From IMG/VR virus record IMGVR_UViG_3300010362_000006, positions 1-43,996 of that record: a stretch of DNA of 43,996 nt. One strand, 5' to 3'. Made by a program: the position numbers and the translations under genes. The notes under the pieces were generated by a model. The model worked only from the letters and a program-made list of their open reading frames with translations, searched no databases and was not told where the DNA came from. The DNA is from a virus. How positions within the stretch are numbered: position 1 is the first letter of the stretch; each line of letters begins with the position of its first letter. Positions 7,082 through 21,717 of the stretch are shown in pieces.

Positions 7082-7083
7082 TC

Positions 7084-7527: not shown

Positions 7528-7547
7528 TCGCGCTTCGCGCGAATTTT
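7528..7547 (+). terminator. Weak intrinsic terminator candidate (TCGCGC-TTC-GCGCGA then AATTTT)
   Basis: 6-bp GC stem, 3-nt loop, short T run. Confidence 0.3.
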
Positions 7548-7554
7548 CCCTGTC

Positions 7555-8012: not shown

Positions 8013-8567
8013 GTGCGTATGTCGCGATTGCCGAAAGGACCAGTACTTCGCATTCACTGCACGAAGGAGATCATCACGAAAGCGGTCACAGCGAACTCTG
8101 CGAAATGCTGGATCGCGGAGTCGATCAAGGCGGCGGTACCCGTCGCCCAAAACGTGGCGGTGGATCTCGCCACGATTCGCTTCAGCGATCTGCAAAAAGG
8201 ATTGCGGTACGTGTACCTCACGCCCTACACGGCACAGCGGGCCATCATTGATTTTGATGAAGGCACGCCGCCCTCGCCGTTTTCATTCCTCTTGCGGAAC
8301 GCGCACGTCACCCGCGCGGGCTCGTCGGATAACACCAAAGCCCACCGCCGCGCCGCCGCCCGCGGCAAGCAGCACCAGCGCGCGCATCTGCACGCCGACC
8401 GCAGCGAACGCAAGGGTGGGTCACACGCGGCGATCCGCCGCGTCGGAGGCCGACGTCCCCCACAGTTGCGAATGCTGCGACAGTTTGGCGTGCGGGCCTT
8501 CCGGGGCGCCTCACGCGAGCGATTACTGAAAGACCAGGCGGCAATCGAAGCGGCGATTACGAGATGA
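8013..8567 (+). CDS. Hypothetical protein, 184 aa, basic C-terminus
   Basis: GTG after GAGGAAGG; coherent ORF with high GC3. Confidence 0.55.
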   Translation: MRMSRLPKGPVLRIHCTKEIITKAVTANSAKCWIAESIKAAVPVAQNVAVDLATIRFSDLQKGLRYVYLTPYTAQRAIIDFDEGTPPSPFSFLLRNAHVTRAGSSDNTKAHRRAAARGKQHQRAHLHADRSERKGGSHAAIRRVGGRRPPQLRMLRQFGVRAFRGASRERLLKDQAAIEAAITR

Positions 8568-8920
8568 GCGCCACCGACGAACACACGTTCCTGATGGACC
8601 TGATGCCGCTCGCGGCGAAGAGTCAGGTCTTCATCGACGGCACCGACATCAGTGGCTTGCTCGCCGGCGTCAGTGTGTCATCGCATGTGCAGGGCACGAC
8701 GACCGTGCATCTCTTCGTCGCGGCGGGTCGGCGCGTGCAACTCAAAGCGATCGTGCCCGAGGCGGCGATTGTGATTCAGGGCGACTTCAAGGAAGTCGCT
8801 CGCGCGTTCGTACAAGCCGCCCTCGACGTGCTCGAGCTGCTGAACGCACACGGGCTGGCGTGTCCAGCGTCGATGGCGATCGCGGCGGAAGAGGCGCGCA
8901 ACTTGGTCAGCGGCGAATGA
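8564..8920 (+). CDS. Hypothetical protein, 118 aa
   Basis: ATGA coupling on both sides. Confidence 0.55.
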   Translation: MSATDEHTFLMDLMPLAAKSQVFIDGTDISGLLAGVSVSSHVQGTTTVHLFVAAGRRVQLKAIVPEAAIVIQGDFKEVARAFVQAALDVLELLNAHGLACPASMAIAAEEARNLVSGE

Positions 8921-9411
8921 CCCTGACGTTCACGGTCTACGGCGTGCCCAAACCGAAGGGCAATCTGCGCGCGTTCATGAAAGCGGGGATGAAGTTTCCG
9001 ATCGTGACCGACTCGAACCGCAACGTGAAGTCGTGGTCACAGCTTGTGGCCGAAGGCGCCAGCCGCGCGATCGCGGAGCTGCCCGTCCACGACCGCTCGC
9101 TGATGTTCGCGAGTGCGATCCGGTTGTCGGTCGCGTTCTACCTGCCGCGGCCGAAGAAATATCAGAAACGTGGCGTGCCGGTCGCGCACCTCACGGCGCC
9201 CGACATCGACAAATTGCTCCGCGCGATCCTCGACGCGCTGACGCAAGTCGCATGGGGGGACGACAGCCAGGTCGTGGAACTGCTTGCCACGAAGGCGTAC
9301 GCCGACGTCGATGCGCCGCCGTGTGCGGTCGTCCGCGTCGAGCGCACGACGGGCGCGCGCCCGGTGGTCGTTTCCCCCGCCCCACTGCCGCTGCTGGAGC
9401 TGGCGCCATGA
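8917..9411 (+). CDS. rusA: RusA-family Holliday junction resolvase, 164 aa
   Basis: VYGVPKPKGN..., PDIDKLLRAILDALTQVAWGDDSQV; start trimmed to the ATGA-coupled ATG 8917. Confidence 0.85.
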   Translation: MTLTFTVYGVPKPKGNLRAFMKAGMKFPIVTDSNRNVKSWSQLVAEGASRAIAELPVHDRSLMFASAIRLSVAFYLPRPKKYQKRGVPVAHLTAPDIDKLLRAILDALTQVAWGDDSQVVELLATKAYADVDAPPCAVVRVERTTGARPVVVSPAPLPLLELAP

Positions 9412-9803
9412 TCTGCCGGTTCTGCGGCGCCGACATCACCGACGATCTGCTGCATGTGCTCAGGTGCGACGGGCGGCAAGGACAGGTCGAGGCCGACGAG
9501 CCGCTGCCGTTCGTCAAAGGCAAGCCACGGTTCAACGGCGACGACTACGTCCCGCCCCGCGACGATCCCCGACTCTCGCGTCAGTACGCGCGCATCTTCA
9601 CCCTGATGCGCGACGCCAAGTGGCGCACGCTCGCGACGATCGAACAGATCACCGGCGATCCGCCGGCGAGCATCAGCGCGCAACTACGACACATGCGGAA
9701 AGCCCGCTTCGGCGGGCACACCATCAACCGGCGGTACCTCGGCGACGGGTTGTACGAATATCAACTCGTCGTCGCGCAGGTCGAGCAGGAGGTCGCACAG
9801 TGA
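9408..9803 (+). CDS. Winged-helix-like DNA-binding protein with N-terminal CxxC, 131 aa
   Basis: ATGA coupling; ASISAQLRHMRKARFGGHTINRR...YEYQL. Confidence 0.55.
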   Translation: MICRFCGADITDDLLHVLRCDGRQGQVEADEPLPFVKGKPRFNGDDYVPPRDDPRLSRQYARIFTLMRDAKWRTLATIEQITGDPPASISAQLRHMRKARFGGHTINRRYLGDGLYEYQLVVAQVEQEVAQ

Positions 9804-10150
9804 GCATCGCTTCCGAGTACGAACGCGCGCTGAATCGCCTGGCGAAGTGGCGCAGTGTCTACACCGGCCGGTGGCTCGGCACGCGCACGCTGCAGGACCC
9901 GGAGGCGATCGCCGTGCGCGACCTTTTCGAGAAATTGCTGATTCTCCGCGTCGAGGTCTCGGCACTCTCGAATCTGCTCATCGACAAGGGCCTGATCTCG
10001 GCGACGGCCTACCAGGCGCAGATCGTGATCGAGTGTGAGCATCTCCAACACGCGCTCGAGCGCCAGTTTCCCGGCTTCAAGGCGTGTGATTACGGCATGG
10101 ACATCAACACCGCGAAGGCGGTCGAGACCACGAAAGGATGGCCGAAATGA
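9800..10150 (+). CDS. Hypothetical protein, 116 aa
   Basis: GTGA coupling; high GC3. Confidence 0.5.
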   Translation: MSIASEYERALNRLAKWRSVYTGRWLGTRTLQDPEAIAVRDLFEKLLILRVEVSALSNLLIDKGLISATAYQAQIVIECEHLQHALERQFPGFKACDYGMDINTAKAVETTKGWPK

Positions 10151-10674
10151 GATTGTTCGACTTCGACAAAGTGGGCTGTTACCTCGACGCGATCGGGCAC
10201 CGCGTCGAGGACCAGGACGGGACCGAGGTCAAGATGATCGACCTCACGCTGCGCGTGCAACCGCTGACGCCGGAGCTGGCGGGCGCGCTGGACCGCGACG
10301 TCCGTACGCTGCTCTTCACTGGCGCCGACCCGAAGCCGAAGATCAAGACGCTCGAGTTCAAGCTCGCGGTCGCGCGACAGCTCGCGCGGGTGTTCCTGCT
10401 CGCCGAGGACGAGACGCCGCAGATCGCGTTCACCGACGTGGAGATTTCGAGCGTGCGCGCTCGCACCGAGAAGGGCGTCGACGGCTTCGGGCTGGTCTTC
10501 TACGCGAGCTTCGGACCCGTGGGGAAGGACGAGCTCGAATACATCTGCAACTGGTACACGCAGCAGCGGTTCATCACCTTCGACCCACAGGAAGCGGCGC
10601 TCGATCTCGCGCATGAGGCACCGGCGCCACCACGCCGACGGCGCGGGCCGGTCCGCGAATTTGCCACGCAGTGA
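10138..10674 (+). CDS. Hypothetical protein, 178 aa (alternative ATGA-coupled start at 10147)
   Basis: Coherent ORF. Confidence 0.55.
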   Translation: MAEMRLFDFDKVGCYLDAIGHRVEDQDGTEVKMIDLTLRVQPLTPELAGALDRDVRTLLFTGADPKPKIKTLEFKLAVARQLARVFLLAEDETPQIAFTDVEISSVRARTEKGVDGFGLVFYASFGPVGKDELEYICNWYTQQRFITFDPQEAALDLAHEAPAPPRRRRGPVREFATQ

Positions 10675-11048
10675 TGGCGACCGCTCCCCCGCGGCCGTGC
10701 GCGCGATGCGGCGCCTATGTCATCGGACGCTGCCCGCGCTGCACCAGGACGCGCGACCAGGCGCGCGGCACGGCGCACGCGCGAGGGTACACGGCGGCGT
10801 GGGGCCAGTTCTCGAGAGCGTGGCTGGCGAAACATCCGTGGTGCGGGGAACGTGCGGATGGGCTGCTCCACGTGGAACATTCCGCGTGCGCGCGGGCAGG
10901 CCTCCGCGTCCGCGCGACGACCACGGACCATATCGTCCCGCTCCGGTCCGGCGGCGGGCACATGGTCGCGGGCAATTCGCAATCGCTCTGCGCCGATTGC
11001 AACCGGCGAAAAGCGATCGCGTTTGAGGGCGGGCTCGGGAGGGGTTAG
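10671..11048 (+). CDS. HNH endonuclease (packaging-associated type), 125 aa
   Basis: N-terminal CxxC..CxxC; DHIVPLRSGGGHMVAGNSQSLCADCNRRK is the HNH core; last gene of the rightward operon, as in HK97-like cos phages. Confidence 0.85.
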   Translation: MMATAPPRPCARCGAYVIGRCPRCTRTRDQARGTAHARGYTAAWGQFSRAWLAKHPWCGERADGLLHVEHSACARAGLRVRATTTDHIVPLRSGGGHMVAGNSQSLCADCNRRKAIAFEGGLGRG

Positions 11049-11103
11049 GCGGGCGGCAGGGGCCAGAGGTCCGCGGCGGCAGGATCGCGCGTCCTGCGAC
11101 CGC

Positions 11104-11520
11104 TCAGCGCCTCGGGCGGGGCCTTCGGCGCGGTCGCTGTGCGGTCGGAAAATCCTTTGCGGTCGGGCCGAACCAGCAGACGAGCGCCTCGCCAATGTCG
11201 GAATAACTCTTGCCGGTCCGGCGCCGGGCATCGGTCAGCTTGTCGCCCGCAGCCGCCGGGACGCGGATCGTCAGGACGTTCGCCGCGAGCTTGCCGGGAA
11301 AGACGACGCCGGGCGCCGCGAAGGTCAACTGCTCGGCGTAGTGGATCGCCAGATGCGCCAGCACGTCGTTCCGGCTCAGGCCGCGCCGACGCACGAGCGC
11401 CTTCAGGGCGTGACGGCCTGCGGGCGTGAAGTCCATCGCGAACGATCGCGTTTTGCCGGGATAGGCCGACTTGCGCCCGGCACCCTCGCGATACCCGCCG
11501 CGCTGCGGTTTCGTTTTCAT
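11104..11520 (-). CDS. Protein with two ribbon-helix-helix-like segments, 138 aa
   Basis: Start trimmed to MKTKPQRGGYREGAGRK; LSRNDVLAHLAIHYAEQL and KSYSDIGEALVCWF look like RHH helices. Confidence 0.5.
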   Translation of the reverse strand: MKTKPQRGGYREGAGRKSAYPGKTRSFAMDFTPAGRHALKALVRRRGLSRNDVLAHLAIHYAEQLTFAAPGVVFPGKLAANVLTIRVPAAAGDKLTDARRRTGKSYSDIGEALVCWFGPTAKDFPTAQRPRRRPRPRR

Positions 11521-11732
11521 AGGATCAACCAGGGTCCGTATCGTCGGAACTGGACGGCGTGTCCATCGTCCAACGTGAGTTGCCGCCACGGCATCCCGTC
11601 ACTGTCGGTGAAGTCGATCACGTCGACCACGCGGGTGCCAATCATCCATTGCTCCACGCGGACCACATCGCGTTCGTTGCCGTCGCCGCCGACGACCTGC
11701 GGGTCAGTCATCGTCATAATCAATGGTCGCAT
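11517..11732 (-). CDS. Acidic small protein, 71 aa
   Basis: High GC3; ATGA overlap with the downstream gene; no obvious SD. Confidence 0.45.
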   Translation of the reverse strand: MRPLIMTMTDPQVVGGDGNERDVVRVEQWMIGTRVVDVIDFTDSDGMPWRQLTLDDGHAVQFRRYGPWLIL

Positions 11733-11740
11733 GGGAGGGA

Positions 11741-11768
11741 GGGGCCGTCAACGTGACGGCCCCTTTTG
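11741..11768 (+). terminator. Intrinsic terminator oriented for the + strand (GGGGCCGTCA-ACG-TGACGGCCCC-TTTTGG)
   Basis: 10-bp GC stem followed by T4; would stop rightward early transcription running antisense into the island. Confidence 0.6.
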
Positions 11769-11773
11769 GAGGG

Positions 11774-12520
11774 TTAGAACTTGAGTCGCAATCCGCCGCC
11801 GATCTGGACACCGCCCACCTTCCGATTGGCGGTACCGCCGTAGTCCTCGAGCTTCACTGTGCCGCGGCTGACGCGGGCCGTAAACCCGAGTCCGACCACG
11901 CGATTGAAAAACACCGAGACGTCCCCGCCGCCGTGGATGCCCCACGCCGAGGCCGTCGATTTGTCGGTGTTGTAGGACTTGATCGCGACGACGTTCAAGC
12001 GACCGAGCGTGGCTTGCTGGTAGTTGATGGTCGTGATCCGTTCCTGTTCGGCGACGAAGTAGGACGGCCCGCCGAACACGCGCACCCGAAAATGCCGCGT
12101 CTCGAACGGCACCACCATCGCGTGAAGATGCCACGCCCCTTCGGTCCGCGTGAGCGACCCGTCGGTCACGGTCGCGTCGGTCGCTGAGGCGTTGAAGAAA
12201 TTCGGATTCGGCACCATGATCGCGAGGCCCGCGGTGTCTTTATGCGCGGTGCCTGCAAGGCTCACCCCGATGCCCGCGCGCCGATGGAACATGTAGCCGC
12301 CGCCGACGTCGAAGGCGCCACCACGGGGCAAGCTGTAGGCGACTGCGCCGCCACCGGGCTCCTGATAGAGCGTCACCACCTTCACGGACGTGTATTCCTT
12401 CTCCGCGGCCTGCGCGGCGCCGAAATTCACGTCTACCCATCCCTTCGCGTAATCCTGCGCGACGGCGCGACCAGCCGTGAGGCCCACCAGGGCGACAGAC
12501 ACAACAATCGTTTTCTTCAT
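11774..12520 (-). CDS. Outer-membrane beta-barrel protein with signal peptide (moron), 248 aa
   Basis: MKKTIVVSVALVGLTAGRAVAQ signal; alternating beta-strand pattern; C-terminal GGGLRLKF; GGAGA SD. Confidence 0.75.
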   Translation of the reverse strand: MKKTIVVSVALVGLTAGRAVAQDYAKGWVDVNFGAAQAAEKEYTSVKVVTLYQEPGGGAVAYSLPRGGAFDVGGGYMFHRRAGIGVSLAGTAHKDTAGLAIMVPNPNFFNASATDATVTDGSLTRTEGAWHLHAMVVPFETRHFRVRVFGGPSYFVAEQERITTINYQQATLGRLNVVAIKSYNTDKSTASAWGIHGGGDVSVFFNRVVGLGFTARVSRGTVKLEDYGGTANRKVGGVQIGGGLRLKF

Positions 12521-12532
12521 GTTCGTTTCTCC

Positions 12533-12562
12533 AAAAAGTGGGGCCGTCGTCGTGACGGCCCC
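12533..12562 (-). terminator. Intrinsic terminator for the leftward P1 operon (GGGGCCGTC-loop-GACGGCCCC then U5 in the transcript)
   Basis: 9-bp GC stem; A5 on the + strand at the lower-coordinate side; 8 nt after the SpoVG-like stop. Confidence 0.7.
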
Positions 12563-12569
12563 GGATTCG

Positions 12570-12908
12570 TTACCGTTGGTTGGCGAGTTCATCGCTGACG
12601 CGCGCTTCGACTTCGGCGTACGCCTCGAGAATCAGATCGCGGATGCGGTTGTGTGCGGCGGTATCTCTCACGGCTCGCAGCAGGGCGAAGGATCGCCGCT
12701 CGCCATTCACCGAGTACTGCCGCGACGGGAAGGTGACGTTGCGGTTGTTGCCGCCACCGCCGCGGCGCTCCCACACCGCGAACCCGATCAACTTCAGGCC
12801 GTCGAGTGGGCCGTCGCTGAAGTGCAACTCAGCGTCCGCGAGTTTCCCGACCGGCGTACCCTGGCTGTTCGGCTGAATTTTGATCGTCATCGTCATCGAG
12901 GTTTTCAT
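12570..12908 (-). CDS. SpoVG-like protein, 112 aa
   Basis: GKLADAELHFSDGPLDGLKLIGFAVWE...VTFPSRQY..GERRSFALLR...IRDLILEAY parallels the SpoVG fold pattern; GGAGA 6 nt before ATG 12908. Confidence 0.6.
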   Translation of the reverse strand: MKTSMTMTIKIQPNSQGTPVGKLADAELHFSDGPLDGLKLIGFAVWERRGGGGNNRNVTFPSRQYSVNGERRSFALLRAVRDTAAHNRIRDLILEAYAEVEARVSDELANQR

Positions 12909-13032
12909 GATCGTCTCCATTGGTTACGGGTTCAGTGCCGACGCCGCCACATCGCGGACACGGTCGGCAGTCGTCGGTGTTGTCGAGTGCGACTTCGCCC
13001 GCGCCATCGCAGGCGACGCACGGGCGGGCCAT
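12829..13032 (-). CDS. DnaJ-type zinc-finger mini-protein (CxxCxGxG x2), 67 aa; overlaps the next gene by 80 nt
   Basis: CVACDGAG...CPRCGGVG; ATG 13032 preceded by GAGGGAGGAG. Confidence 0.5.
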   Translation of the reverse strand: MARPCVACDGAGEVALDNTDDCRPCPRCGGVGTEPVTNGDDHENLDDDDDQNSAEQPGYAGRETRGR

Positions 13033-13033
13033 C

Positions 13034-13402
13034 TCAGTACTCCTCCCTCAGCATGATCGTGAGCAGCCGGTACGCTTTCTTCGACGCATCCTCGGCGCCC
13101 TGCTCCATCGCGGGATTCTCGAAGTAGTCGATCTTCCAGAACACCGCGACGCTCCCGACGTCCACGCGCCCGAAGTCGTGCTCGTGGTACGGGTCGTTCG
13201 GGTCGTCATCGGCGAACGTGTCGAAGGCGGCGACGGCCCGCAGGACCGCGAGCCGCACCTCCGCGTCGAGTTCGGCCACGCCTCGCGTCATCGTCACGCG
13301 GCCGACCCGTGCGGGATAGAAGAACAAGTTGCGGCGAAAGTAATCGTTGTGCGCGGCGATCACCGCCGCGCGATTCGAGCCATCAGTCATACGCAGTGCC
13401 AC
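13034..13402 (-). CDS. DUF3768-like protein, 122 aa
   Basis: DDPNDPYHEHDFGRVDVGSVAVFWKIDYFE...RLLTIMLREEY matches my recollection of DUF3768; GTG 13402 lies 7 nt after GGGAGGA. Confidence 0.6.
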   Translation of the reverse strand: MALRMTDGSNRAAVIAAHNDYFRRNLFFYPARVGRVTMTRGVAELDAEVRLAVLRAVAAFDTFADDDPNDPYHEHDFGRVDVGSVAVFWKIDYFENPAMEQGAEDASKKAYRLLTIMLREEY

Positions 13403-13404
13403 GG

Positions 13405-13608
13405 TTAGTTCCTCCCTCGGTTCAACTCGATCGAAAATTCGCACGTGTTGCAGAAGGCAACGGTGCAGCGGCGGCGAACGGTTTCCTCGCGGCCGGGCGT
13501 CACGAAGCCACCACGCACGACGACCGATTCGGTCTCGGCCTCCGTGTCGATCGTGAACGACGAGCCCTTGCAGCGGGGGCAGTGCAGGTTCGGGTGTTCG
13601 GCTACCAC
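13405..13608 (-). CDS. Zinc-ribbon protein, 67 aa
   Basis: CPRC...CNTC; GTG start with AGGGAG SD. Confidence 0.55.
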   Translation of the reverse strand: MVAEHPNLHCPRCKGSSFTIDTEAETESVVVRGGFVTPGREETVRRRCTVAFCNTCEFSIELNRGRN

Positions 13609-13743
13609 GTGAGTGCTCCCTGAATAAGTGGGACCGGCTGCACGTCGCTCGGCCGGTCCCGTTCGGTTTGTCCTAGCCCGCGGGCGCCGTGCCCGCGTTT
13701 GTCGGTGTCGGCGCCGCCCGGCGCCGTTTTATCGTCACAATCA

Positions 13744-13772
13744 ACTCTATGGTCAAAATCAAGCACGGTCAA
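13744..13772 (-). promoter_or_regulatory. Promoter P1: TTGACC (13772-13767)-17 nt-TAGAGT (13749-13744)
   Basis: One of three near-identical elements; begins 1 nt after the upstream gene's stop codon. Confidence 0.7.
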
Positions 13773-13773
13773 G

Positions 13774-14025
13774 CTACATCACACGTTCGGCCTTCGCTTT
13801 TTTCGTCGGCGCCAAGTCGGTCGGCCGTGGTGCATCGACGCCCGCGACCAGGATGCGGGGACGATCCGCGAGCAGGAGGATTGCGCTCGCATCGCTGACG
13901 TCGCCGAACGTTTTGGCGACGAGCTCGAGCGCCTTTGCCTTGTTCGCCGCCATCACCAGGACGACGGCGGGGGCGCAGTGCGGGCGCCGAATGCGATACA
14001 GGTTCATTGCTGTTCGTTTTTTCAT
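13774..14025 (-). CDS. Hypothetical protein, 83 aa
   Basis: ATG preceded by GGGAGGG; follows the amidotransferase gene. Confidence 0.5.
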   Translation of the reverse strand: MKKRTAMNLYRIRRPHCAPAVVLVMAANKAKALELVAKTFGDVSDASAILLLADRPRILVAGVDAPRPTDLAPTKKAKAERVM

Positions 14026-14035
14026 GACGCCCTCC

Positions 14036-14659
14036 CTACCGCAGGTTCCAGATCAATCGCTGTTGTTTGTCGCCACCCTTGTCGTCATCGGCCTGCGGGC
14101 GCACGTGCAGGCACCCGCTCCGAAGAAAGTGGGTGTTGCTCGCCCACACGCCCTCGACCGGCTGCGACCAGCCGCGGCCGAATCGCTGAATGCCCTTCGG
14201 CGTGAAGAGCACCACGCGGTTCTGATCCTCGTTGACGCATTCCTCGATCGTGTCGGCGCCGTAGGCGCTGACCATCGTCGCCATCGCTCGCGAGTCGGAC
14301 CAGGCACCGTCGCCCTGCTCCACGAAGTCGCGCCACTTCCACCACGTGCCGTTGTGGAACAACACCCCGCGGCGCGAGCGGCCGTCGAGTGCGCCCGGTT
14401 TCACGCGCCCGTCGATCGCGAACGGGTGGCACAGTTCCGGGCAGATGCCGCCGACGGTGGCGATGCGCGCATGGAACACGTAGGGCATCGGCAGGGTCCG
14501 CGCGAGGACGATCGCATCCTCGTCGCTCACACCCTTCGTGAACACCACGGCGCCCTTGTCGATGTAGGCGAAGCCGTTGCCGTCGGGGTTCGCAGCGATC
14601 GCGGCCTCGACCACCTTCTTCGTCAGTCGCTTCTCTTCAGCAATCAAAATCACACACAT
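14036..14659 (-). CDS. Class II (Ntn) glutamine amidotransferase-like protein, 207 aa
   Basis: Begins MC (Cys2 nucleophile); HARIATVG, CHPF, LFHNGTW, SDSR blocks; GAGAGGA SD. Confidence 0.75.
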   Translation of the reverse strand: MCVILIAEEKRLTKKVVEAAIAANPDGNGFAYIDKGAVVFTKGVSDEDAIVLARTLPMPYVFHARIATVGGICPELCHPFAIDGRVKPGALDGRSRRGVLFHNGTWWKWRDFVEQGDGAWSDSRAMATMVSAYGADTIEECVNEDQNRVVLFTPKGIQRFGRGWSQPVEGVWASNTHFLRSGCLHVRPQADDDKGGDKQQRLIWNLR

Positions 14660-14717
14660 GGTCCGTATCCTCTCGACTCGAAAAAAATTGCGGTGGAGTT
14701 CAGGTGCGACGGGCGCC

Positions 14718-15605
14718 CTAGAGGGCGTCCGTCTCGGTGCTGTCGGCCTCGACCATCGGTCCGTCGTACTTGCTCGCCATCTGTCGGAGTTTCGCGTAGA
14801 GGCGCGGCAGCGACGCGCGATCGAACACGCCGTAGGCTTTCTTGTCGCCGTTCGCCCACCACCCGAGGTGATTGATCAAGCGACGCACGGCCTGCGCGCC
14901 ATCGCCGATGCCCTCTTTCGCTTGACGCTTGGACGCGGGCGCATCCCACGGCAGCGGCGCGCTGGAGTCACACGCCTTCTGCACGATGCCGAGGCAGATT
15001 TGAATGTAGGCCGCAATCTTCGTCGCGTTGAGAGTGCCCGCGAACACGCGGAACTCGACGGTCTGGCGACGGCCCTCTGCGAGGTTTTGCAGGTTCAGCA
15101 CGTGATAACGGCTCTGGTGCGATCGCGCGATCTGATTCAGGTTCGACAGGTCCGCGAGTGCGCGATACGCCGCTTTAATCGACGCGCAATACATGTTGTG
15201 TTCGCGGGACCGGGTGCCGGTCGTCGCGAAGAGTGCTTTTTCGTGATAGGCGACGAAGCAGATCAGGCGACGAAGTTGCTGCGCAGAGCCGTTGAAGCCG
15301 ACGTGGACGTGGAACCCGGTGGAGCGGTTCACGCTGGCGCCAATCTCCACGAGTTTCGCGATCATGCGCGTTGCTTCGGCGAGGCCTTCGGCGCCGCGGA
15401 GGATTGGCGAGACGACCTCGCAGGCAACGCGCGGATATTGCACGTGGACGCTGGAATCGCTCATCAATTTCCAGCCGGGGAATCCCGCCATTTCGGCGCC
15501 GACGTGGTAGGCGCCGACGTGCCAGCCGTTCGCGTCCAGTGCCGTGCCCGGAATGCCGCACTCGATTTCGATGCCGAACGTCATGTTGCTCAGTTCCGTT
15601 GCCAT
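14718..15605 (-). CDS. Amidoligase (Amidoligase_2, glutamine-synthetase-like fold), 295 aa
   Basis: FGIEIECG, W..MSDSS...CEVVSP, STGFHVHVG, RYHVLNL, TVEFRVFAGTLN; start trimmed to ATG 15605 with AAGGGAG SD. Confidence 0.8.
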   Translation of the reverse strand: MATELSNMTFGIEIECGIPGTALDANGWHVGAYHVGAEMAGFPGWKLMSDSSVHVQYPRVACEVVSPILRGAEGLAEATRMIAKLVEIGASVNRSTGFHVHVGFNGSAQQLRRLICFVAYHEKALFATTGTRSREHNMYCASIKAAYRALADLSNLNQIARSHQSRYHVLNLQNLAEGRRQTVEFRVFAGTLNATKIAAYIQICLGIVQKACDSSAPLPWDAPASKRQAKEGIGDGAQAVRRLINHLGWWANGDKKAYGVFDRASLPRLYAKLRQMASKYDGPMVEADSTETDAL

Positions 15606-15651
15606 GTCCCTGCTCCCTTGTGTTTGTCTATCGTCAAAATCAACTTTCCAA

Positions 15652-15680
15652 ACTCTATCGTCTGAATCAAGCACGGTCAA
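15652..15680 (-). promoter_or_regulatory. Promoter P2: TTGACC (15680-15675)-17 nt-TAGAGT (15657-15652)
   Basis: Near-identical to P1 and P3. Confidence 0.7.
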
Positions 15681-15788
15681 GACGATCGGACCAGAAAAAT
15701 GCCTACTTTTTTGCATAGTCCTGGCGGACAAATTCACTGCGTTTTATTGGGGTTTGGACGACCTATGCAGCCGGTCGCGGGCTGGAGG

Positions 15789-16313
15789 CTATGTCGCGAG
15801 GACGGCTAAAACCAGCCGGGAGACGCTGTCGGGTATCGTCAGAACGTCAGTGCAGAGGGTCAAATCCGGCGCCGCAGGCGCCTCGTACGGGTCCGAGACG
15901 CCGGTGAAGTTGGGAATCTCTCCCGCGATCGCGCGCCGATAGAGACCTTTCACGTCCCGCGCGGTCACGACCTCGAGCGGCGCCGCGACGTAGACCTCGA
16001 GGAACCGCACACCATCGACCTGCGCCTGCTCTCGCGCGAGTCGACGCGCCTCCGCGTACGGCGAGATCATCGCGACGAAGACGATCACGCCGTGCCGCGC
16101 AATCCGCGTCGCGACCCAGGCGACGCGCGCCACGTTGAGATTGCGATCACGGGCGGTGTAGCCGAGTTCCGGCGCCAGATGCGGACGGACGACGTCCGCA
16201 TCGAGCAGGTCCACCGCGAGCCCATACGAGGCCAGCTCGTCGCGCGCCGCCGCCGCGACGGTCGACTTGCCCGCACCCGAGAGTCCGGTCAACCAGGCGA
16301 TCGTGCCCCTCAC
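15789..16313 (-). CDS. cysC: Adenylylsulfate (APS) kinase, 174 aa
   Basis: GLSGAGKST P-loop, LDADVVR, ARDRNLNVARV, ISPY, RDVKGLYRRA..GEIPNFTGVSDPYEAP. Confidence 0.88.
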   Translation of the reverse strand: MRGTIAWLTGLSGAGKSTVAAAARDELASYGLAVDLLDADVVRPHLAPELGYTARDRNLNVARVAWVATRIARHGVIVFVAMISPYAEARRLAREQAQVDGVRFLEVYVAAPLEVVTARDVKGLYRRAIAGEIPNFTGVSDPYEAPAAPDLTLCTDVLTIPDSVSRLVLAVLAT

Positions 16314-16918
16314 CGCTTGCCCTTCGACCAGTTGCGATCGGCCACCTCGAGGTCGCCGCGGCGCAGCCGCTTCAAATCTTCGGCGAACAGCGACGGCCCG
16401 CGCGGGCTGAGCGCCGCATCTTCGGTCAGAAAGAAATCGCGTCGACGCAGGCCACGTCGCTTGCCCTGCATGGTGTGGCAGTCGTCGGTGTAGTCGGGCA
16501 ACGTCTCGACCTTCGTCGCGGCGAGCAGGGTCTCGACGGCCTTGTCCGACACGCCCTTCGCTTCGTGGACGAGGTTCGCGAGGTGATCGGCATCACGGCT
16601 CTTCGCCGCGGTGCAGAGCAGAATCACCGCCTTCGCCATGAAGACCCGCCCGGCCAACTTCCAGCGATCCTTGTCGGTCATTTCCTTGCGCACGAGATCC
16701 CACGAGTCGTAGAGTGCCTTCACCTCGCCCGTCACCAGGGCCGCGCAATCCTCGGCGCTGATAATCAGCAAACGCCGCCACGCGTAGGCGCCGAACCCAC
16801 TGGTGTGCAGTTCCATCGCGCAGTAACCCGCCATTCGCACGTCGTTGCGGCGGATGCCCTTCTGCATCGCCGACACCACGCGCGCTAAATCGTGCCCTCT
16901 CTTCGTTGTCAGTCGCAT
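16310..16918 (-). CDS. Stand-alone MgsA/RarA C-terminal-domain-like protein, 202 aa
   Basis: SAMQKGIRRNDVRMAGYCAMEL...RRLLIISAEDCA...LLCTAAKSRD...LPDYTDDCH parallels the MgsA_C pattern; GGAGGAG 8 nt before ATG 16918; GTGA-coupled to cysC. Confidence 0.5.
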   Translation of the reverse strand: MRLTTKRGHDLARVVSAMQKGIRRNDVRMAGYCAMELHTSGFGAYAWRRLLIISAEDCAALVTGEVKALYDSWDLVRKEMTDKDRWKLAGRVFMAKAVILLCTAAKSRDADHLANLVHEAKGVSDKAVETLLAATKVETLPDYTDDCHTMQGKRRGLRRRDFFLTEDAALSPRGPSLFAEDLKRLRRGDLEVADRNWSKGKR

Positions 16919-16943
16919 CAGTTGATCTCCTCCAGAAGCATCA

Positions 16944-16972
16944 ACTTTATCGTCGGAATCAAGAGCGGTCAA
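16944..16972 (-). promoter_or_regulatory. Promoter P3: TTGACC (16972-16967)-17 nt-TAAAGT (16949-16944)
   Basis: Near-identical to P1 and P2. Confidence 0.7.
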
Positions 16973-17031
16973 ACGGTTTTCGGCGAGGACGATCGGGGTC
17001 CTCGGGGCGAAAGCTCATACGAAAGTCCGCG

Positions 17032-17835
17032 TCAGTAGCCGAAGGGCTCGAGCGTCAGCCGATGACGATCGAGCAGCTCGCGATCCGTGACGTGGCCGGT
17101 CCGGCTCGCGTCGATGACGAACGGCACGCGGAGCCGCTGCCCGAGAAAGGCGCTCAATTCGTCGAGAACGACGATCGGGTCCGTGACCAGGCGCTCGAAC
17201 CGGACGGTGGTGGCGCGCGGACCGAGGCGCCAGACCTGCAGCTCGGCGCGCTCGACGTATTCGCGCCACCAATCGACGGCGTCCGCGGTGTCCGCGGCCC
17301 GAAGATTCGCGATCGCACGGTGCTGGCGCACCAGGCGAGCCACCGGCGCCCGACCGGCTCGCCACCGCGCCTCAACCCGCCGACGACGATCCGTGAGGCT
17401 CGCGGCCACCTCGAGCCCGTTCCGCAGCACGTGAATGACCTGCGCCTCGGGCCAGATCCGCAACCAAAACGGCAGCGTGAAGGTGGTCCGCGGGTCCTTA
17501 AACCCGTAGCGCCGCGGGCGCCGCACCAGGCGCCAGCCCCAATAGCGACGTGCGCTCCACCCCTCGACGTGCGCGCGCACCACCTGGCTGACCGCATCGG
17601 CGAGGAACGCATCCGCCAGCAGACGATCCACACCGCCGCCGCCGGCGGTCTCGATGCTGGCGCCGGCGCTCTGAAGAATCCAGCGATTCACCGCTTGCAG
17701 TGATCGACTCTCGTGATTCGACTCGACGTCGGCGCCCATGAAGACGCCGTTGCCTGCGAGGATGCGCGCGACCAGGCTGGTCCCCGACCGACTCGAGCCG
17801 ATGACGATCACGGGACTAGAGCATGTCGGTCCCAT
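17032..17835 (-). CDS. PAPS-dependent sulfotransferase, 267 aa
   Basis: 5'-PSB-like VIVIGSSRSGTSLVARIL near the N-terminus; KDPRTTFTLPFW; 3'-PB-like LRNGLEVAAS. Confidence 0.75.
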   Translation of the reverse strand: MGPTCSSPVIVIGSSRSGTSLVARILAGNGVFMGADVESNHESRSLQAVNRWILQSAGASIETAGGGGVDRLLADAFLADAVSQVVRAHVEGWSARRYWGWRLVRRPRRYGFKDPRTTFTLPFWLRIWPEAQVIHVLRNGLEVAASLTDRRRRVEARWRAGRAPVARLVRQHRAIANLRAADTADAVDWWREYVERAELQVWRLGPRATTVRFERLVTDPIVVLDELSAFLGQRLRVPFVIDASRTGHVTDRELLDRHRLTLEPFGY

Positions 17836-18562
17836 GCTGCCGCCGCTCGACTGAGATTTTGGAAATGAACGTGCCTTTGGCCCACCGCGTCCGCAAGTGC
17901 GCGCCCCACTTGCGATGCAGGTACGCGAACTCGACGTCGTGCGCGGCCTTCGTGCGATTCACCGCGTTGCCGCCCGCTTGCTTCCACCGATCGTGCGCGA
18001 ACGCGAACCGGTTGTCCTGCCAGATGATCCGAAATTTTCTGAGGTGTTGCAGCGCGAAGTCAGTATCCGCGTGCAGCTTCAACTTCGGGTCGTAGCGCAG
18101 CTCGCGGCCGACGACGCCCATCGGCCCATCGACCCACCCGTTCAAGTTGAAAGGCTGAAGAGGCGTGAACTTCCGCACGTCCCACGCCTGGTTGAAGCCG
18201 CACAGATGCGCGCCCGCGGCCTCGGCGCACTCGATGGTGTTGACGAGCAGGTCCCAAATCAGCGGCGGCGCGATGTGATTCGCGTACGTGCCGGTCAGGC
18301 CGTACGCCCCGACGATATCATCCGGCACCATGTAGACCAGGGGACTCGACACGTGGTCGAGAATCCACTGACGGACCGGACCGATGCCGGTCACGTTGTT
18401 CGGGTGCAACAGCAGCTCGCGCTTCGTGAGGCCGTGGTACTCGTCGCGCTCTTCCTCGGCCACGCACAACGTCGCCTCGGGGAAGAACCGCCCGCTCTGC
18501 CGCGGCCACGTGCGCGCCCGACGACGACTCATGCACACCAGGGCGATCGCGGGCGTGATCAT
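17816..18562 (-). CDS. GT-A-fold-like (nucleotide-sugar transferase-like) protein, 248 aa
   Basis: Start trimmed to the ATGA-coupled ATG 18562; order IALVCMSRRR...GIGPVRQWILDH...VYMVPDDIV resembles the GT-A N-terminal half with a DxD-like motif. Weak, motif-level call only. Confidence 0.35.
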   Translation of the reverse strand: MITPAIALVCMSRRRARTWPRQSGRFFPEATLCVAEEERDEYHGLTKRELLLHPNNVTGIGPVRQWILDHVSSPLVYMVPDDIVGAYGLTGTYANHIAPPLIWDLLVNTIECAEAAGAHLCGFNQAWDVRKFTPLQPFNLNGWVDGPMGVVGRELRYDPKLKLHADTDFALQHLRKFRIIWQDNRFAFAHDRWKQAGGNAVNRTKAAHDVEFAYLHRKWGAHLRTRWAKGTFISKISVERRQHGTDML

Positions 18563-19239
18563 TTCTTCCGTTTGCCGTCGAGAATCTCGAACAGCCGGTC
18601 GGCGCCGATGACGCGTCCGATGCCGATCTTGCGGCGACCCCCGAGCGTCACGCCCTCGCGTCGGATGCCCAACAAATCGCAGGCGCGCGTCCACGCGTGG
18701 CTGTCCCGAAACACCACCATGATGTAGTCGTGGTGCTCGAAGGGCTGACACTCCATCTCCGGCAACGTCTCGTCGGCGACGACGTCCTCGCTCGCGTTGA
18801 GCAATTTCGCCCACTCCGGGGGACGGAAAAAGTCCTCGAGGTTCGCGCCGCTCTCTTGCAGACTCTTCAACGTCGCCGGTTCCCACGCCAGGCCGACTTC
18901 GGTGACACGGTTGTCGGCGATGGCGAGTTCGCGCGCCGCACTGTCCGACAAATCGAGATCGGTCCGCTGCACCACCACGAGCTGCGAGCCGTCGGTCTGC
19001 ACCACCACGAGCTCGGGCGCACCACTCTCGCCCGCGGCCTCCACGGTCTTGTTCCCCGCGATCAACTGCCCGTGTTTGTCGACCAGGACGGAGCGACCGA
19101 ACCCGTACTCGCGAATCGAGGTGTGGAGCAGCGCGCGACCACGCGTCGTACCCTTGTTCGCGTTGTTCGGGTCGGGCTTGAGGTCTGCGAGGGACCGCAG
19201 GGCACCGTTGGCTGGCGCCGCGGTGGATTTTCGCTTCAA
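18559..19239 (-). CDS. ParB/Srx-fold N-terminal domain protein, 226 aa
   Basis: LKPDPNNANKGT...LLHTSIREYGFGRSVLVDKHGQLIAGNKTVEAA; TTG 19239 preceded by GTAGGGGGG. Confidence 0.65.
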   Translation of the reverse strand: MKRKSTAAPANGALRSLADLKPDPNNANKGTTRGRALLHTSIREYGFGRSVLVDKHGQLIAGNKTVEAAGESGAPELVVVQTDGSQLVVVQRTDLDLSDSAARELAIADNRVTEVGLAWEPATLKSLQESGANLEDFFRPPEWAKLLNASEDVVADETLPEMECQPFEHHDYIMVVFRDSHAWTRACDLLGIRREGVTLGGRRKIGIGRVIGADRLFEILDGKRKK

Positions 19240-19379
19240 GTTGCCCCCCCTACGCCAATTTCGCGACGGCCTACGCGAGGGGCCTGAGTGGTTTGGCGCA
19301 CCCCACGCGCCAGCGATTGACAAGCCCCCCCGGTCCCGCGACGCGCGACGAACGACGCGCGCATCGTACCACCACACCG

Positions 19380-19550
19380 ACCAACCGACGATCACCACGA
19401 CGACACGGACATACCGACGACTCACCAACGCACACACACACACACACCGACCAACTCACTCACGCACACTCACACCCACACACACTGACTAACTGACGCA
19501 CGCACTGACGAACTGAGACGCACGACACACTCACGCGCGGAGTAACATAC
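19380..19550. repeat. Strand-asymmetric C+A-rich low-complexity tract with a 16-nt (CA)8 run (19431-19446) and four ACTGA(C/G) repeats (19484-19517); candidate cos/pac or terS-binding region
   Basis: Read directly; lies between the divergent ParB-like gene and terS. Confidence 0.5.
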
Positions 19551-19556
19551 GCACGC

Positions 19557-20048
19557 ATGCGTGGGCGGAAGCCAAAGCCGACGCAACTGAAGCGACTCGC
19601 CGGGAATCCTGGTCGCAGGCCGCTCAACACTGACGAACCCGAGCATCCTGCGCTCTCGAGCGACGTCCCACGTGAACTCACGCACGACGAGGACGCACGA
19701 CTCGAATGGTTGCGCCTCGAGCCACTCCTGAAGCGCAGTCGGCAAGTGACGGAGGCGGATCGGGCCGCACTGATGGCCTGCTGTCTGGAGTGGAGCCGGT
19801 ATCTCCGCGCAACGGCGGAAGTGCGGAACAAAGGGCCGTTGATTGCGTCGCCGAACGGCTACCCCATCATCAACCCGTGGCTGTCCATCGCCACAAAGGC
19901 ACTCGCCGGATGTAACAAACTCTGGCCCGAGTTGGGCCTGACGCCGTCCAGTCGCGCACGGGTGAAGAGCGACGGACCACCACCCGCCGGTGATGCCTTC
20001 TCGGAGTTCGACATTCCACCTGAACTTGGGCCGGTGACGGAGCACTGA
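19557..20048 (+). CDS. Terminase small subunit, P27 family, 163 aa
   Basis: MRGRKPKPTQLKRLAGNPGRRPLN...NPWLSIA...LGLTPSSRARV. Confidence 0.85.
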   Translation: MRGRKPKPTQLKRLAGNPGRRPLNTDEPEHPALSSDVPRELTHDEDARLEWLRLEPLLKRSRQVTEADRAALMACCLEWSRYLRATAEVRNKGPLIASPNGYPIINPWLSIATKALAGCNKLWPELGLTPSSRARVKSDGPPPAGDAFSEFDIPPELGPVTEH

Positions 20049-20052
20049 GGCG

Positions 20053-21717
20053 TTGCATCCGATCGATGCGTATGCGCGTGCGGTGATCAGCGGCGAACGA
20101 CCAGCAGGCAAATACCACCGACTCGCCTGTGAGCGGCACGAACGCGATCGGGCGCGACAGTGGACGCCCGACTTTCCGTACGTCCTGGTCTACAAACTCG
20201 CGGATCGCTTCGTCCGCTTCACGCAACAGCTCAAGCATTACAAGGGCGAATGGGCCGGACGGCGCATCGTACTCGAGGCGCACCAACTGTTTCGCCTCGG
20301 CTCCGTGATCGCCTGGGTCCATCGCGACACGGGACTCCGTCGCTTCCGTACCGCCTACAACGAACTGCCGAGGAAGAATGGGAAGTCGCTCGAGGCCGCG
20401 ACGATTGCGTTGTACATCTCGTTTTTCGATGGCGAACCCGGTGCCGAAGGCTATTGCATCGCGACGAAGCGCGACCAGGCGAAGATCGTGTTCAACGACG
20501 CCAAGCGGTTGACGGAATCGAGCGCGCCACTCCGATCGCGATTGTCGGTGCTCGCGGCCAACCTGCATCACTACGAGAGCGCCTCGAAGCTCGAGCCACT
20601 CGGCGCTGACTACGACTCCACCGATGGCCTCAACCCGAATCTCATCATCACGGATGAGTTTCACGCGCAAAAGAATCGCGACCTGCTCGACGTCATGGAG
20701 ACGGCGACTGGTGCGCGCCGTCAACCGCTCAATTTTCAGATCACCACCGCGGGCAATGACCCGGTCTCGCCCTGCGGCGACCAGCACGACTACGCCTGCA
20801 AAATCCTCGACCAGGTGATTGTTGACGAGACGTTCTTCGCCTTCATCGCCCACGCCGAACCAACCGACGACTGGATGGCGGAAGCGACCTGGCGGAAAGC
20901 GAATCCCAATTACGGCGTGTCGGTGAAGCCGGACGATCTGCTCGCGCTCGCCACTAAAGCCCGCAACATGGAGGCGGCGACGGCCGCGTTCAAACAAAAA
21001 CGGCTGAACTTGTGGGTCAACGCGGTCTTGCCGTGGCTGGCCCTCGATGGCTGGCGCCTCGGGCAATCGGCGTGGACCCTTGAGGACATGGCGGGCGCGG
21101 CCTGCTGGATTGGCATCGACCTCAGTTCAAAAATTGACTTGACAGCCGCCGTGGTGGTGTTTCCGCCGACCGACGAGCGCGAGACCTGGCGCCTGTGGGT
21201 GTGGGCGCTCACGCCGGCGGACACCCTCGAGCAGCGCGAACGGCGCGACCGCGCACCCTACGCGCAATGGGTCAAAGAGGGTTATCTCAGCACCAACCCC
21301 GGCAATCGCATTGACCAGGGCGCCGTGCTCGAGTTCGTGCAGCGGATGTCGGCACACTTCGACGTGCAGCGCATTGGGGTGGACCCGTGGAATGCGGGCA
21401 ATCTTGTGCAGGCGCTCACCGACGACGGCTTTCAGGTGGTGGAGATTCCGCAAACGATGGCGCAGATGAGTGCGCCCTCGAAAGACTTCGAGGCCGACGT
21501 GCTCGACGGGCTCGTCGACGCGGCGCACAACCCACTGATGCAGTGGTGCGTCAGCAACGTCGTCGTGCAACGCGATGGGAAGGACAATATTTACCCGATT
21601 AAGAAAAAGAGCCGTGGCAGAATTGACCCGGTGATCGCTACGCTCATGGGCCGTAAGCTCGCCGCGATCGATCTCGCCGTGCCGCTCGCGGGCGAACCCG
21701 ATCTGGTGGTCGCATGA
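20053..21717 (+). CDS. Terminase large subunit, 554 aa (TTG start)
   Basis: Size, position and ATPase/nuclease-like blocks (ELPRKNGKS, LIITDEFH, GIDLS...DLTA). Confidence 0.88.
   Translation: MHPIDAYARAVISGERPAGKYHRLACERHERDRARQWTPDFPYVLVYKLADRFVRFTQQLKHYKGEWAGRRIVLEAHQLFRLGSVIAWVHRDTGLRRFRTAYNELPRKNGKSLEAATIALYISFFDGEPGAEGYCIATKRDQAKIVFNDAKRLTESSAPLRSRLSVLAANLHHYESASKLEPLGADYDSTDGLNPNLIITDEFHAQKNRDLLDVMETATGARRQPLNFQITTAGNDPVSPCGDQHDYACKILDQVIVDETFFAFIAHAEPTDDWMAEATWRKANPNYGVSVKPDDLLALATKARNMEAATAAFKQKRLNLWVNAVLPWLALDGWRLGQSAWTLEDMAGAACWIGIDLSSKIDLTAAVVVFPPTDERETWRLWVWALTPADTLEQRERRDRAPYAQWVKEGYLSTNPGNRIDQGAVLEFVQRMSAHFDVQRIGVDPWNAGNLVQALTDDGFQVVEIPQTMAQMSAPSKDFEADVLDGLVDAAHNPLMQWCVSNVVVQRDGKDNIYPIKKKSRGRIDPVIATLMGRKLAAIDLAVPLAGEPDLVVA

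Follow-up and report, generated by a model that had tools for sequence, protein, structure and literature searches.

A phage Amidoligase_2/class II amidotransferase gene pair at the end of a ParB/TAGT/MgsA_C-like island of putative DNA-hypermodification type

Adjacent genes for an amidoligase and a class II glutamine amidotransferase (GAT) have been annotated in LUZ24-like, tf and PaP3 Pseudomonas phages and in OM43 phages, and the authors of those genomes left the function of the pair to future work. PMC10580990 credits the comparative-genomics prediction of Iyer, Abhiman, Burroughs and Aravind (2009) for exactly this pair, in line with the first-pass annotation of the DNA described here, which had attributed the prediction to the same group. 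Our literature search found no experimental characterisation of the amidoligase/GAT pair, which bears out the further statement of that annotation that its function is experimentally undefined; the search also gave nothing linking amidoligases with anti-defence and nothing on Amidoligase_2 in phages since 2019, and PF12224, the Pfam family of these ligases, appeared in genome descriptions only. Here we analysed a window of 43,996 nucleotides (nt), the IMG/VR virus record IMGVR_UViG_3300010362_000006, which is almost the whole of a 44-kb metagenomic contig from a tailed phage with 65% GC, and in which an integrase gene (1376-2704) marks the phage as temperate. On the minus strand, a 295-amino-acid (aa) Amidoligase_2 enzyme (14718-15605) is followed by a 207-aa GAT-like enzyme of the N-terminal nucleophile (Ntn) class (14036-14659) and by an 83-aa open reading frame (ORF; 13774-14025). 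The two enzymes belong to the already predicted, uncharacterised family pair, and what is new is their context: they lie within an island of ParB-like, TET-associated glycosyltransferase-like (TAGT) and MgsA_C-like genes, together with a sulfotransferase gene that we found in this and four other contigs and an APS kinase gene that we found in this phage alone. We propose, with a probability of roughly 40%, that a pathway of post-replicative DNA-glycan modification operates here and that the pair would install an amide of gamma-glutamyl type on its product and then trim it.

The closest described counterparts are the phage pairs covered by the 2009 prediction, with which the window pair shares both families, the ligase-then-GAT order, the tight adjacency and the phage setting. 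It differs from them in that its GAT is minimal, without the C-terminal extensions of the 330-490-aa versions, and in that it keeps company with ParB, TAGT, sulfotransferase and APS kinase genes by the terminase of a temperate phage, whereas the early region in which the others are found holds a phiEco32-type COOH-NH2 ligase together with an ATP-grasp enzyme. Among cellular systems, ergothioneine biosynthesis uses a GCS2-type gamma-glutamyl ligase (EgtA) and a class II GAT-like gamma-glutamyl hydrolase (EgtC), and butirosin biosynthesis follows a gamma-glutamyl protecting-group logic with BtrJ and BtrG. Both resemble the window in coupling a ligase of the glutamine synthetase (GS)/GCS2 fold to a second enzyme, either a stand-alone class II amidohydrolase of Ntn type or a gamma-glutamyl cyclotransferase, but there is no sequence relationship beyond the superfamily, the window has no EgtB/D/E-type partners, and the analogy is one of mechanism only. 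Pupylation by PafA and Dop is similar in the ligase fold (probability of at least 0.99 for the PafA-Pup complex and Dop entries) and in making and hydrolysing a glutamyl gamma-amide. However, both pupylation enzymes are GS-fold paralogues, whereas the window hydrolase is an Ntn enzyme, and the window has no Pup-like tag ending in GGQ or GGE, a description that the 83-aa ORF does not fit; here too the resemblance is confined to mechanism. In concept, the split amidotransferases MurT/GatD and AsnB-like WbpS are also comparable, since a glutaminase serves an ATP-dependent partner that activates and amidates a carboxylate (PMC3267633). GatD, however, is a class I (triad) GAT, MurT is a Mur ligase and AsnB has a PP-loop adenylating domain, while the partner in the window is a GS-fold ligase predicted to form an acyl-phosphate.

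Gene clusters for DNA hypermodification form a further point of comparison. Genes for amidoligases and glutaminotransferases have been noted in association with clusters for thymidine hypermodification (PMC8989533). ParB-like proteins activate phage thymine dioxygenases in clusters that include GATases, and the commonest neighbours of these ParB-dependent T-dioxygenase clusters are glycosyltransferases, ParBs and terminases (PMC13229309). In addition, a TAGT-family enzyme of phage T6 is thought to extend glucosyl-hydroxymethylcytosine (PMC13390438). The window resembles such clusters, whether of the TET/5mYOX plus TAGT, the ParB-dependent T-dioxygenase or the thymidine type with an amino-acid:DNA transferase (AADT) and 5-HMUDK, in its ParB-like protein, TAGT-like glycosyltransferase, GATase/amidoligase genes and terminase-side position, and in one relative, locus L091, a C5-methylase and Mom occur as well. 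It departs from them in that no dioxygenase, AADT or 5-hmdU kinase was found among the 30 window ORFs scanned with Pfam (the non-structural half and one distal ORF), and in that a sulfotransferase and an APS kinase are present. Membership in the ParB-dependent 5mYOX clusters of PMC13229309 was considered and rejected: a ParB-like protein is present, but no TET/JBP dioxygenase was found in the scanned window ORFs or in the precomputed Pfam calls for the contig.

The amidoligase and the amidotransferase

The minus-strand ORFs of 295, 207 and 83 aa were verified at the coordinates given above, and an independent gene caller run on the source contig returned identical products. All three have a GC content of 0.76-0.88 at third codon positions against about 0.46 at second positions, the coding signature of this genome. 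The motifs quoted in the first-pass annotation are also in place, with FGIEIE, EVVSP, GFHVHVG and EFRVFAGTLN in the ligase translation and MC, HARIATVGG, HPF, HNG and SDS in the 207-aa translation.

The ligase, read from its ATG, matches Pfam Amidoligase_2 (PF12224) with E=4.5e-28 and 99.2 bits (cutoff 22) over profile positions 40-245 of 245, and the phage family phrog_2443, annotated as amidoligase, with 3e-35; PF12224 is present in all 120 ligase homologues listed. A structural model built from 44 homologues is confident (predicted local distance difference test score, pLDDT, 92.5; predicted TM-score 0.91), and its best relatives in a Foldseek search of the PDB are YbdK, the gamma-GCS part of GshF, glutamine synthetases, the plant and E. 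coli glutamate-cysteine ligases and PafA/Dop. Probabilities are 0.96-1.0 for the 29 matches at an E value of 0.01 or below, whose TM-scores normalised to the query reach just 0.38-0.50 because the targets are larger. Residues G11, E13, E15, E63, S66, P67, G97, H99, R134, E184 and R186 are invariant across the 44 sequences, and the blocks quoted earlier coincide with such residues, namely E13 and E15 in FGIEIE, E63, S66 and P67 in EVVSP, H99 in GFHVHVG, and E184 and R186 in EFRVFAG. The conserved acidic, histidine and arginine residues of GxExE, EVVSP, GxHVH and ExR are predicted, by analogy, to bind metal and ATP. The assignment of this protein to Amidoligase_2, a GS/GCS2-fold ATP-dependent carboxylate-amine ligase, therefore holds on both the PF12224 match and the GS-like fold of the model. 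A Shine-Dalgarno-like GGGAG lies 10 nt upstream of the ATG. A longer ligase starting from a GTG and reaching 15737 is implausible, because a promoter-like element would then fall inside the gene.

The 207-aa protein is a stand-alone glutaminase domain for which direct Pfam (E up to 0.01) and NCBIfam (E up to 0.1) searches were empty. It has 464 homologues, however, of which P0049, P0065, P0106, P0108, P0116 and P0119 carry PF13522 (GATase_6), and a profile of the family gave weak yet consistent matches to class II GATs in the PDB, with E=0.05 to the YafJ-like 1te5. PDB searches with the single sequences of the ligase, the GAT, the ParB-like protein and the sulfotransferase gave no match. In 52 GAT homologues H63, R65, H78-P79-F80, H102-N103-G104, D122 and S174-N175 are invariant. 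The gene starts ATG-TGT, encoding Met-Cys; M1 and C2 are kept in at least 90% of the 52 homologues, and the start M-C-[VI]-[IL] is found at 73 of 86 loci. A profile alignment to GFAT-1 places R65, N103-G104 and D122 on its HTRWATHG, HNG and DTE motifs, and we take these residues to be the counterparts of GlmS R73 (the Arg that binds the alpha-carboxylate), N98-G99 (the oxyanion Asn-Gly) and D123 (the Asp that binds the alpha-amino group). The model (pLDDT 91.6) has the Ntn four-layer alpha-beta-beta-alpha fold and matches the glutaminase domains of GlmS, GFAT-1 and PurF (1xff, 6svq, 3ooj and 6czf) with probability 1.0, E values from 4.5e-5 to 1e-3 and query-normalised TM-scores up to 0.57, as well as 27 viral Gn_AT_II/YafJ-like proteins. 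The Shine-Dalgarno sequence GAGAGGA lies 8 nt before the ATG. The PF13522 matches of the homologues, the conserved motifs and the modelled fold agree with the earlier identification as an Ntn class II amidotransferase, and we describe the protein as a glutamine amidotransferase-like amidohydrolase. The catalytic residues, on which the first-pass annotation had made its reading depend, are present and conserved in both enzymes.

Pairing across phages and the surrounding gene island

We examined 80 IMG/VR viral contigs with a gene related to that of the GAT, locating the ligase by iterative profile search. The ligase adjoins the GAT at 78 of these loci and lies directly upstream on the same strand at 76; at one of the two loci lacking an adjacent ligase the GAT sits at the contig edge. 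The gap between the two genes has a median of 21 nt and is no more than 100 nt in 56 of 67 measurable cases (58 nt in the window). The pairing is near-obligate, and the earlier claim that the two genes are functionally coupled is upheld by it. In MW202828 and phage C75C1, a GAT-like domain forms the N-terminus of proteins annotated as gamma-glutamyl cyclotransferase, and in C75C1 an amidoligase lies 0.85 kb upstream of this protein; the window has no such fusion.

Upstream of the pair, on the same strand, is an island that begins divergently from the small terminase gene (terS) and of which the pair forms the last promoter-like unit. The first island gene (18559-19239) encodes a protein with a ParB/Srx-like N-terminal domain (phrog_620, E=2.2e-18; phrog_498, E=4.6e-17), in whose sequence the canonical GERRxRA CTP-binding motif is not evident. 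It is followed by a 248-aa putative TAGT-family glycosyltransferase (17816-18562; phrog_842, E=4.8e-9), whose homologues 36-66% identical to it, the closest at 65-66%, carry PF20691. Next come a Sulfotransfer_3 sulfotransferase (17032-17835; Pfam E=1.8e-18), an MgsA_C-like protein (16310-16918; phrog_16866, E=3.7e-41) and, directly upstream of the promoter-like element P2, an APS kinase (15789-16313) that matches the Pfam APS_kinase profile over its full length with E=4.7e-53. The MgsA_C-like protein matches MgsA_C itself weakly, and its homologue in locus L087 has a recorded Pfam MgsA_C match. No island protein has a transmembrane-type hydrophobic segment.

The sulfotransferase has an N-terminal GSSRSGT motif, invariant in three orthologues, which we take to be of the 5'-phosphosulfate-binding type that recognises 3'-phosphoadenosine-5'-phosphosulfate (PAPS). 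APS kinase makes PAPS, and by profile the two genes thus form a PAPS-dependent sulfation module; no ATP sulfurylase was among the Pfam matches of the scanned window ORFs, and this enzyme is presumably supplied by the host. The possibility that the APS kinase is a mis-called 5-hmdU-type P-loop kinase was rejected on its full profile match. Pattern scans of IMG/VR found no relatives of the sulfotransferase or the APS kinase, and a single metagenome scan yielded two short contigs. No APS kinase homologue was present in the 86 loci used for counting island genes or in seven of the loci fetched later, nor was there a close relative in the viral collection, and so far the gene is specific to this phage.

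Among the 86 loci, the pair is accompanied by a ParB-like gene in 45, a TAGT-like gene in 43 and an MgsA_C-like gene in 40. When the GATs were grouped at 50% identity into 17 clusters, TAGT was found with five, ParB with four and MgsA_C-like genes with four. The order of trio and pair differs in L031, L038, L080 and L084, and in L095 the series ParB, ligase, GAT leads on to a 422-aa TAGT that immediately precedes the terminase. Because several GAT clusters and rearranged orders are involved, the linkage of the trio with the pair is more than inherited synteny. Among 16 loci that lack the ParB/TAGT/MgsA_C trio, phiEco32-type COOH-NH2 ligases are the most frequent neighbours (five ORFs); one of these loci has an AADT and a P-loop nucleotide kinase, and another has FolE, QueD and radical-SAM genes.

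Several relatives extend this picture. The order ParB, TAGT, sulfotransferase, MgsA_C-like also occurs in L091, L092, L100 and L101. In L091 (ENA ERZ27257124 k141_1348568, locus 2000-16900) the trio and the sulfotransferase are followed by a 560-aa C5 DNA methylase, Mom and an amidoligase and then by the terminase, and on the 5' side of the ParB-like block are Dam, GT2, a PIG-L deacetylase, a deaminase-like gene and a second GT-A-like protein, so that the block is an unusually dense candidate DNA-hypermodification island. In L087 the module adjoins host genes, apparently at the end of a prophage. The lytic cluster EC Microbacterium phages keep the trio and have a UDP-glucose/GDP-mannose dehydrogenase fragment in place of the pair. 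In Microbacterium phage KaiHaiDragon (NC_048020; 48978-52039) the trio homologues are gp85, gp87 and gp89, and a 260-aa protein has only the central domain of UDP-glucose/GDP-mannose dehydrogenase. These EC phages are isolates in which the function of the trio, for example DNA glycosylation, can be probed directly.

Three near-identical copies of a 29-nt motif, TTGACCG..CTTGATT..GAC.ATA.AGT, divide the minus strand of this region. The first copy, P1 (16972-16944), precedes the MgsA_C-like gene. The middle copy, P2 (15680-15652), with TTGACC, a 17-nt spacer and TAGAGT, resembles a sigma-70 promoter and lies 47 nt upstream of the ligase ATG. The third copy, P3 (13772-13744), starts 2 nt past the stop of the 83-aa ORF and delimits the three-gene unit on its downstream side. 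The 16-nt core of the motif has three matches against 0.27 expected, a number that none of 100 shuffles reached, and the 29-nt pattern has three against 0.45 expected; no fourth copy was found 5' of the ParB-like gene with up to three mismatches allowed. Given the repeated copies, the three genes form one of several units that are predicted to be identically promoted. The element P2 that the first-pass annotation had placed upstream of all three ORFs is there, as a predicted promoter. Its description of an operon with its own promoter stands as regards this promoter-like element, but the operon is not self-contained, being the last unit of a larger island whose core recurs with the pair in several lineages and in different gene orders.

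The third ORF of the unit encodes a small basic protein of a family sharing the motif YRxxRP[HWY]C[AS]P, for which Pfam and NCBIfam searches were empty. It starts 10 nt past the GAT behind a strong GGGAGGG Shine-Dalgarno sequence, so that the two are translationally close-coupled; in both genes the Shine-Dalgarno-like sequence is 5-8 nt before the ATG. Only five weak relatives (E up to 1e-3) were found among 1.84 billion representative proteins. In L096 a homologue 60% identical to it overlaps the stop of a GAT 55% identical to that of the window, and in L097 a matching partial ORF lies behind a GAT 71% identical to the window's; these two closest relatives are the only loci in which homologues follow the GAT. 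None of the 80 viral loci has a homologue, and in L099 a family member lies among unrelated genes, away from any GAT or ligase. Owing to the Shine-Dalgarno sequence and the L096 and L097 homologues the ORF is probably a real gene, and it is probably a lineage-specific accessory passenger of the transcription unit. On this distribution we rejected it as a conserved partner or substrate, and the earlier idea that it might be one is not generally valid. The same position, directly after the GAT, is occupied by a conserved ORF of about 140 aa in L021, L035 and about 35 other island-bearing loci of one large lineage (10676-11098 in L005 and 4141-4563 in L087), and a DUF6908 gene follows in L005 and L095. 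In this lineage separate genes for AAA ATPases are found 1-2 kb further downstream, one of 214 aa in 24 loci and one of 299 aa in 10, and may point to a split RarA/MgsA-like ATPase.

Possible roles of the pair

In the mechanism that we favour, the ligase would draw on ATP to turn a carboxylate into an acyl-phosphate for coupling to an amine. The most likely product would be a gamma-glutamyl-type amide, because every close structural relative of the ligase acts at the gamma-carboxylate of glutamate. The GAT would lose its initiator methionine, leaving Cys2 as the N-terminal nucleophile, and would hydrolyse the amide in the side chain of glutamine or in an adduct of gamma-glutamyl type, since the Arg, Asn-Gly and Asp of the glutamyl site, which contact the alpha-carboxylate, the oxyanion and the alpha-amino group, are all kept. 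We favour installation followed by trimming, in the manner of EgtA/EgtC or of gamma-glutamyl protecting groups, over a simple relay of ammonia, given the structural relatives of the ligase and the occurrence, in other phages, of gamma-glutamyl cyclotransferases with a fused GAT-like domain. Judging from its gene context, the island as a whole may build a post-replicative DNA (glycan) hypermodification, to which the pair would add an amide-linked group or process one, while the sulfotransferase and the APS kinase would add sulfate to the DNA-glycan product. A DNA-glycan modification is the most economical reading of the ParB-like and TAGT neighbours, the clusters described in the literature and the absence of transmembrane-type segments. 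By comparison, the host-takeover or anti-defence role suggested in the first-pass annotation remains a guess, as PADLOC assigned no defence-system family to the island proteins apart from a weak MTase-type match to the ParB-like domain; the island context points more to DNA hypermodification, which, if true, would have an anti-restriction function.

Several observations weigh against this proposal. No TET/JBP dioxygenase, pyrimidine hydroxymethylase, C5-methyltransferase or AADT was found in the scanned window ORFs or in precomputed Pfam calls, which divergent members may escape. With no acceptor-making enzyme in the window, the acceptor of a DNA glycosyltransferase is therefore unexplained, and DNA as the target is something we infer. 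The TAGT of the window matches its Pfam family with E=1.9e-4 and 21.9 bits, under the cutoff of 27.5. Ligase and GAT are also separable, since L091 has a ligase 70% identical to that of the window with no GAT within 9 kb. In 12 of the 17 GAT clusters the pair has no TAGT or MgsA_C-like genes nearby, in 13 the ParB-like gene is missing, and the pair without the trio is often beside the phiEco32-type ligase, so that the pair behaves as a portable unit whose target may vary between phages. With a sigma-70-like promoter copy of its own, as predicted from its sequence, it could be expressed independently from the prophage in the manner of a moron. The temperate nature of the phage and the position of the L087 module beside host genes would agree with a role as lysogenic-conversion genes whose target is a host glycan. 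The Sulfotransfer_3 family also includes protein-tyrosine sulfotransferases, and the sulfotransferase is therefore no proof of a glycan target. Finally, present evidence fits install-and-trim chemistry and a glutamine-to-ammonia relay alike.

Such a relay, in which the GAT hydrolyses free glutamine and passes the ammonia to the ligase, which converts an ATP-activated carboxylate into a carboxamide, is possible, though we consider it doubtful. The substrate could be a glycan uronic acid, a carboxylated base or an amino-acid adduct, and the system would be a split analogue of asparagine synthetase or MurT/GatD. The GAT keeps all the residues for binding and cleaving free glutamine, its best structural matches are the glutaminase domains of true amidotransferases, and the tight juxtaposition of the two genes is as expected of a complex; if free ammonia also serves the ligase, L091 could do without a GAT, and the UDP-sugar dehydrogenase fragment that takes the place of the pair in the Microbacterium phages offers a link to uronic acids. 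Yet the characterised structural relatives of the ligase all use the gamma-carboxylate of glutamate, where ammonia would merely remake glutamine in a futile cycle with the glutaminase, and a relay leaves no role for the GAT-like domains fused to gamma-glutamyl cyclotransferase. Tagging of proteins or peptides, in line with the original idea of Iyer and Aravind, would have the ligase place a tag, either glutamate or a peptide, on a protein amine in the manner of PafA, and the Ntn enzyme, as a thiol peptidase, mature or remove it in the manner of Dop; the target would be the 83-aa protein or else a protein of the virion or the host. PafA and Dop are indeed among the top structural matches of the ligase, and the 83-aa ORF is translationally coupled to the GAT, retained in the two nearest relatives and endowed with a conserved Cys-containing motif. 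We nevertheless find tagging improbable, as the 83-aa family is very rare, missing from the 80 loci and, in L099, present with neither GAT nor ligase, the C-terminus of the 83-aa protein (…AERVM) does not resemble that of Pup, and no other small conserved protein goes with the pair from lineage to lineage, the ORF of about 140 aa being confined to one large lineage.

It is also rather unlikely that the glycosyltransferase, sulfotransferase and APS kinase genes and those of the amide enzymes are prophage-expressed morons whose products remodel a surface glycan, a cell-wall peptide or a secreted metabolite of the host and so, for instance, exclude superinfecting phages. A sulfotransferase with an APS kinase is classic glycan or Nod-factor chemistry, and such lysogenic conversion would suit the integrase-bearing phage, the repeated host-type promoter-like elements, the apparent prophage-end position of the L087 module and the outer-membrane-protein-like gene just downstream of the unit. 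An older suggestion of cell-wall modification for the pair is relayed by PMC10580990. However, the conserved partners are of nucleic-acid type (ParB-like and MgsA_C-like) or belong to a glycosyltransferase family known from DNA glycosylation, the trio is also present in strictly lytic Microbacterium phages, the L091 genes are set between Dam, the C5-methylase and Mom, and the island proteins have no transmembrane-type hydrophobic segments, the one kind of membrane signal examined. Least probable of all, in our view, is that the pair is independent of the island, perhaps metabolic as an auxiliary metabolic gene (AMG) set for nitrogen or glutamine, and lies beside it through phage mosaicism. Its own promoter-like copy and its occurrence alone in most lineages would fit, and AMG-style interpretations exist in the literature, but co-occurrence with the trio survives rearrangements and GAT lineages less than 50% identical, the three promoter-like copies are near-identical, suggesting co-regulation, and a stand-alone glutaminase with a GS-like ligase brings no obvious metabolic gain.

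Returning to gamma-glutamyl chemistry on a DNA-glycan product, we can only speculate, at a fairly low probability, on the full pathway: the island may make a new post-replicative hypermodification in which a sugar on phage DNA is sulfated with phage-boosted PAPS and decorated or neutralised by the pair via a gamma-glutamyl or carboxamide linkage. A full-text literature search combining sulfotransferase, phage and hypermodification retrieved no paper. If true, this would be the first sulfated DNA modification and the first assigned function of the widespread phage Amidoligase_2/GAT-II pair, in a pathway starting without a recognisable TET/JBP or hydroxymethylase step.

Flanking features and implications

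Beyond the island, the window carries a RusA gene, the terminase subunits (19557-21717) and, past them, the structural genes; a nucleotide search of positions 12000-19000 against 50,697 phage records gave no match. Between the ParB-like gene and terS, the region 19290-19560 is markedly GT-rich on the minus strand, with GTGTGTG runs and repeated CGTCAGT/GTGCGTG-like units, which makes it a possible pac/cos or regulatory region. A strong GC-rich hairpin (13703-13726; CGGCGCCGGGCGGCGCCG core), situated about 20 nt past the -10 element of P3, is terminator-like on the plus strand and would fall in the 5' leader of the next unit. The unit past P3 includes a 67-aa Cys-rich ORF (13405-13608) with weak zinc-ribbon-type matches and a DUF3768 gene (13034-13444). 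Further along, an ORF at 11774-12592 on the minus strand shows a signal-peptide-like N-terminus, MKKTIVVSVALVGLTAG…, beginning at residue 25 of the ORF as listed, besides a weak match (E=0.0014) to an outer-membrane beta-barrel, and is a possible lysogenic-conversion gene; a terminator-like hairpin at 12540-12562 closes the unit preceding it. At the distal end of the structural region, a 368-aa ORF on the plus strand (41189-42295) has weak Methyltransf_25 and MTS matches (E about 4e-3).

In conclusion, Amidoligase_2/GAT-II is among the most widespread phage enzyme pairs awaiting a function, occurring in therapeutic LUZ24-like Pseudomonas phages, in marine OM43 phages and in many metagenomic viruses. 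The window narrows this old question, in that the active sites are intact, the pairing is near-obligate and several lineages tie the pair to ParB-like and TAGT genes of the DNA-hypermodification type. It also offers a concrete hypothesis, amide chemistry on a DNA-linked glycan, within a compact seven-gene cassette. If the sulfotransferase and the APS kinase share that product, the chemistry of DNA modification would extend to sulfation, with a bearing on restriction evasion, sequencing artefacts and enzyme tools.

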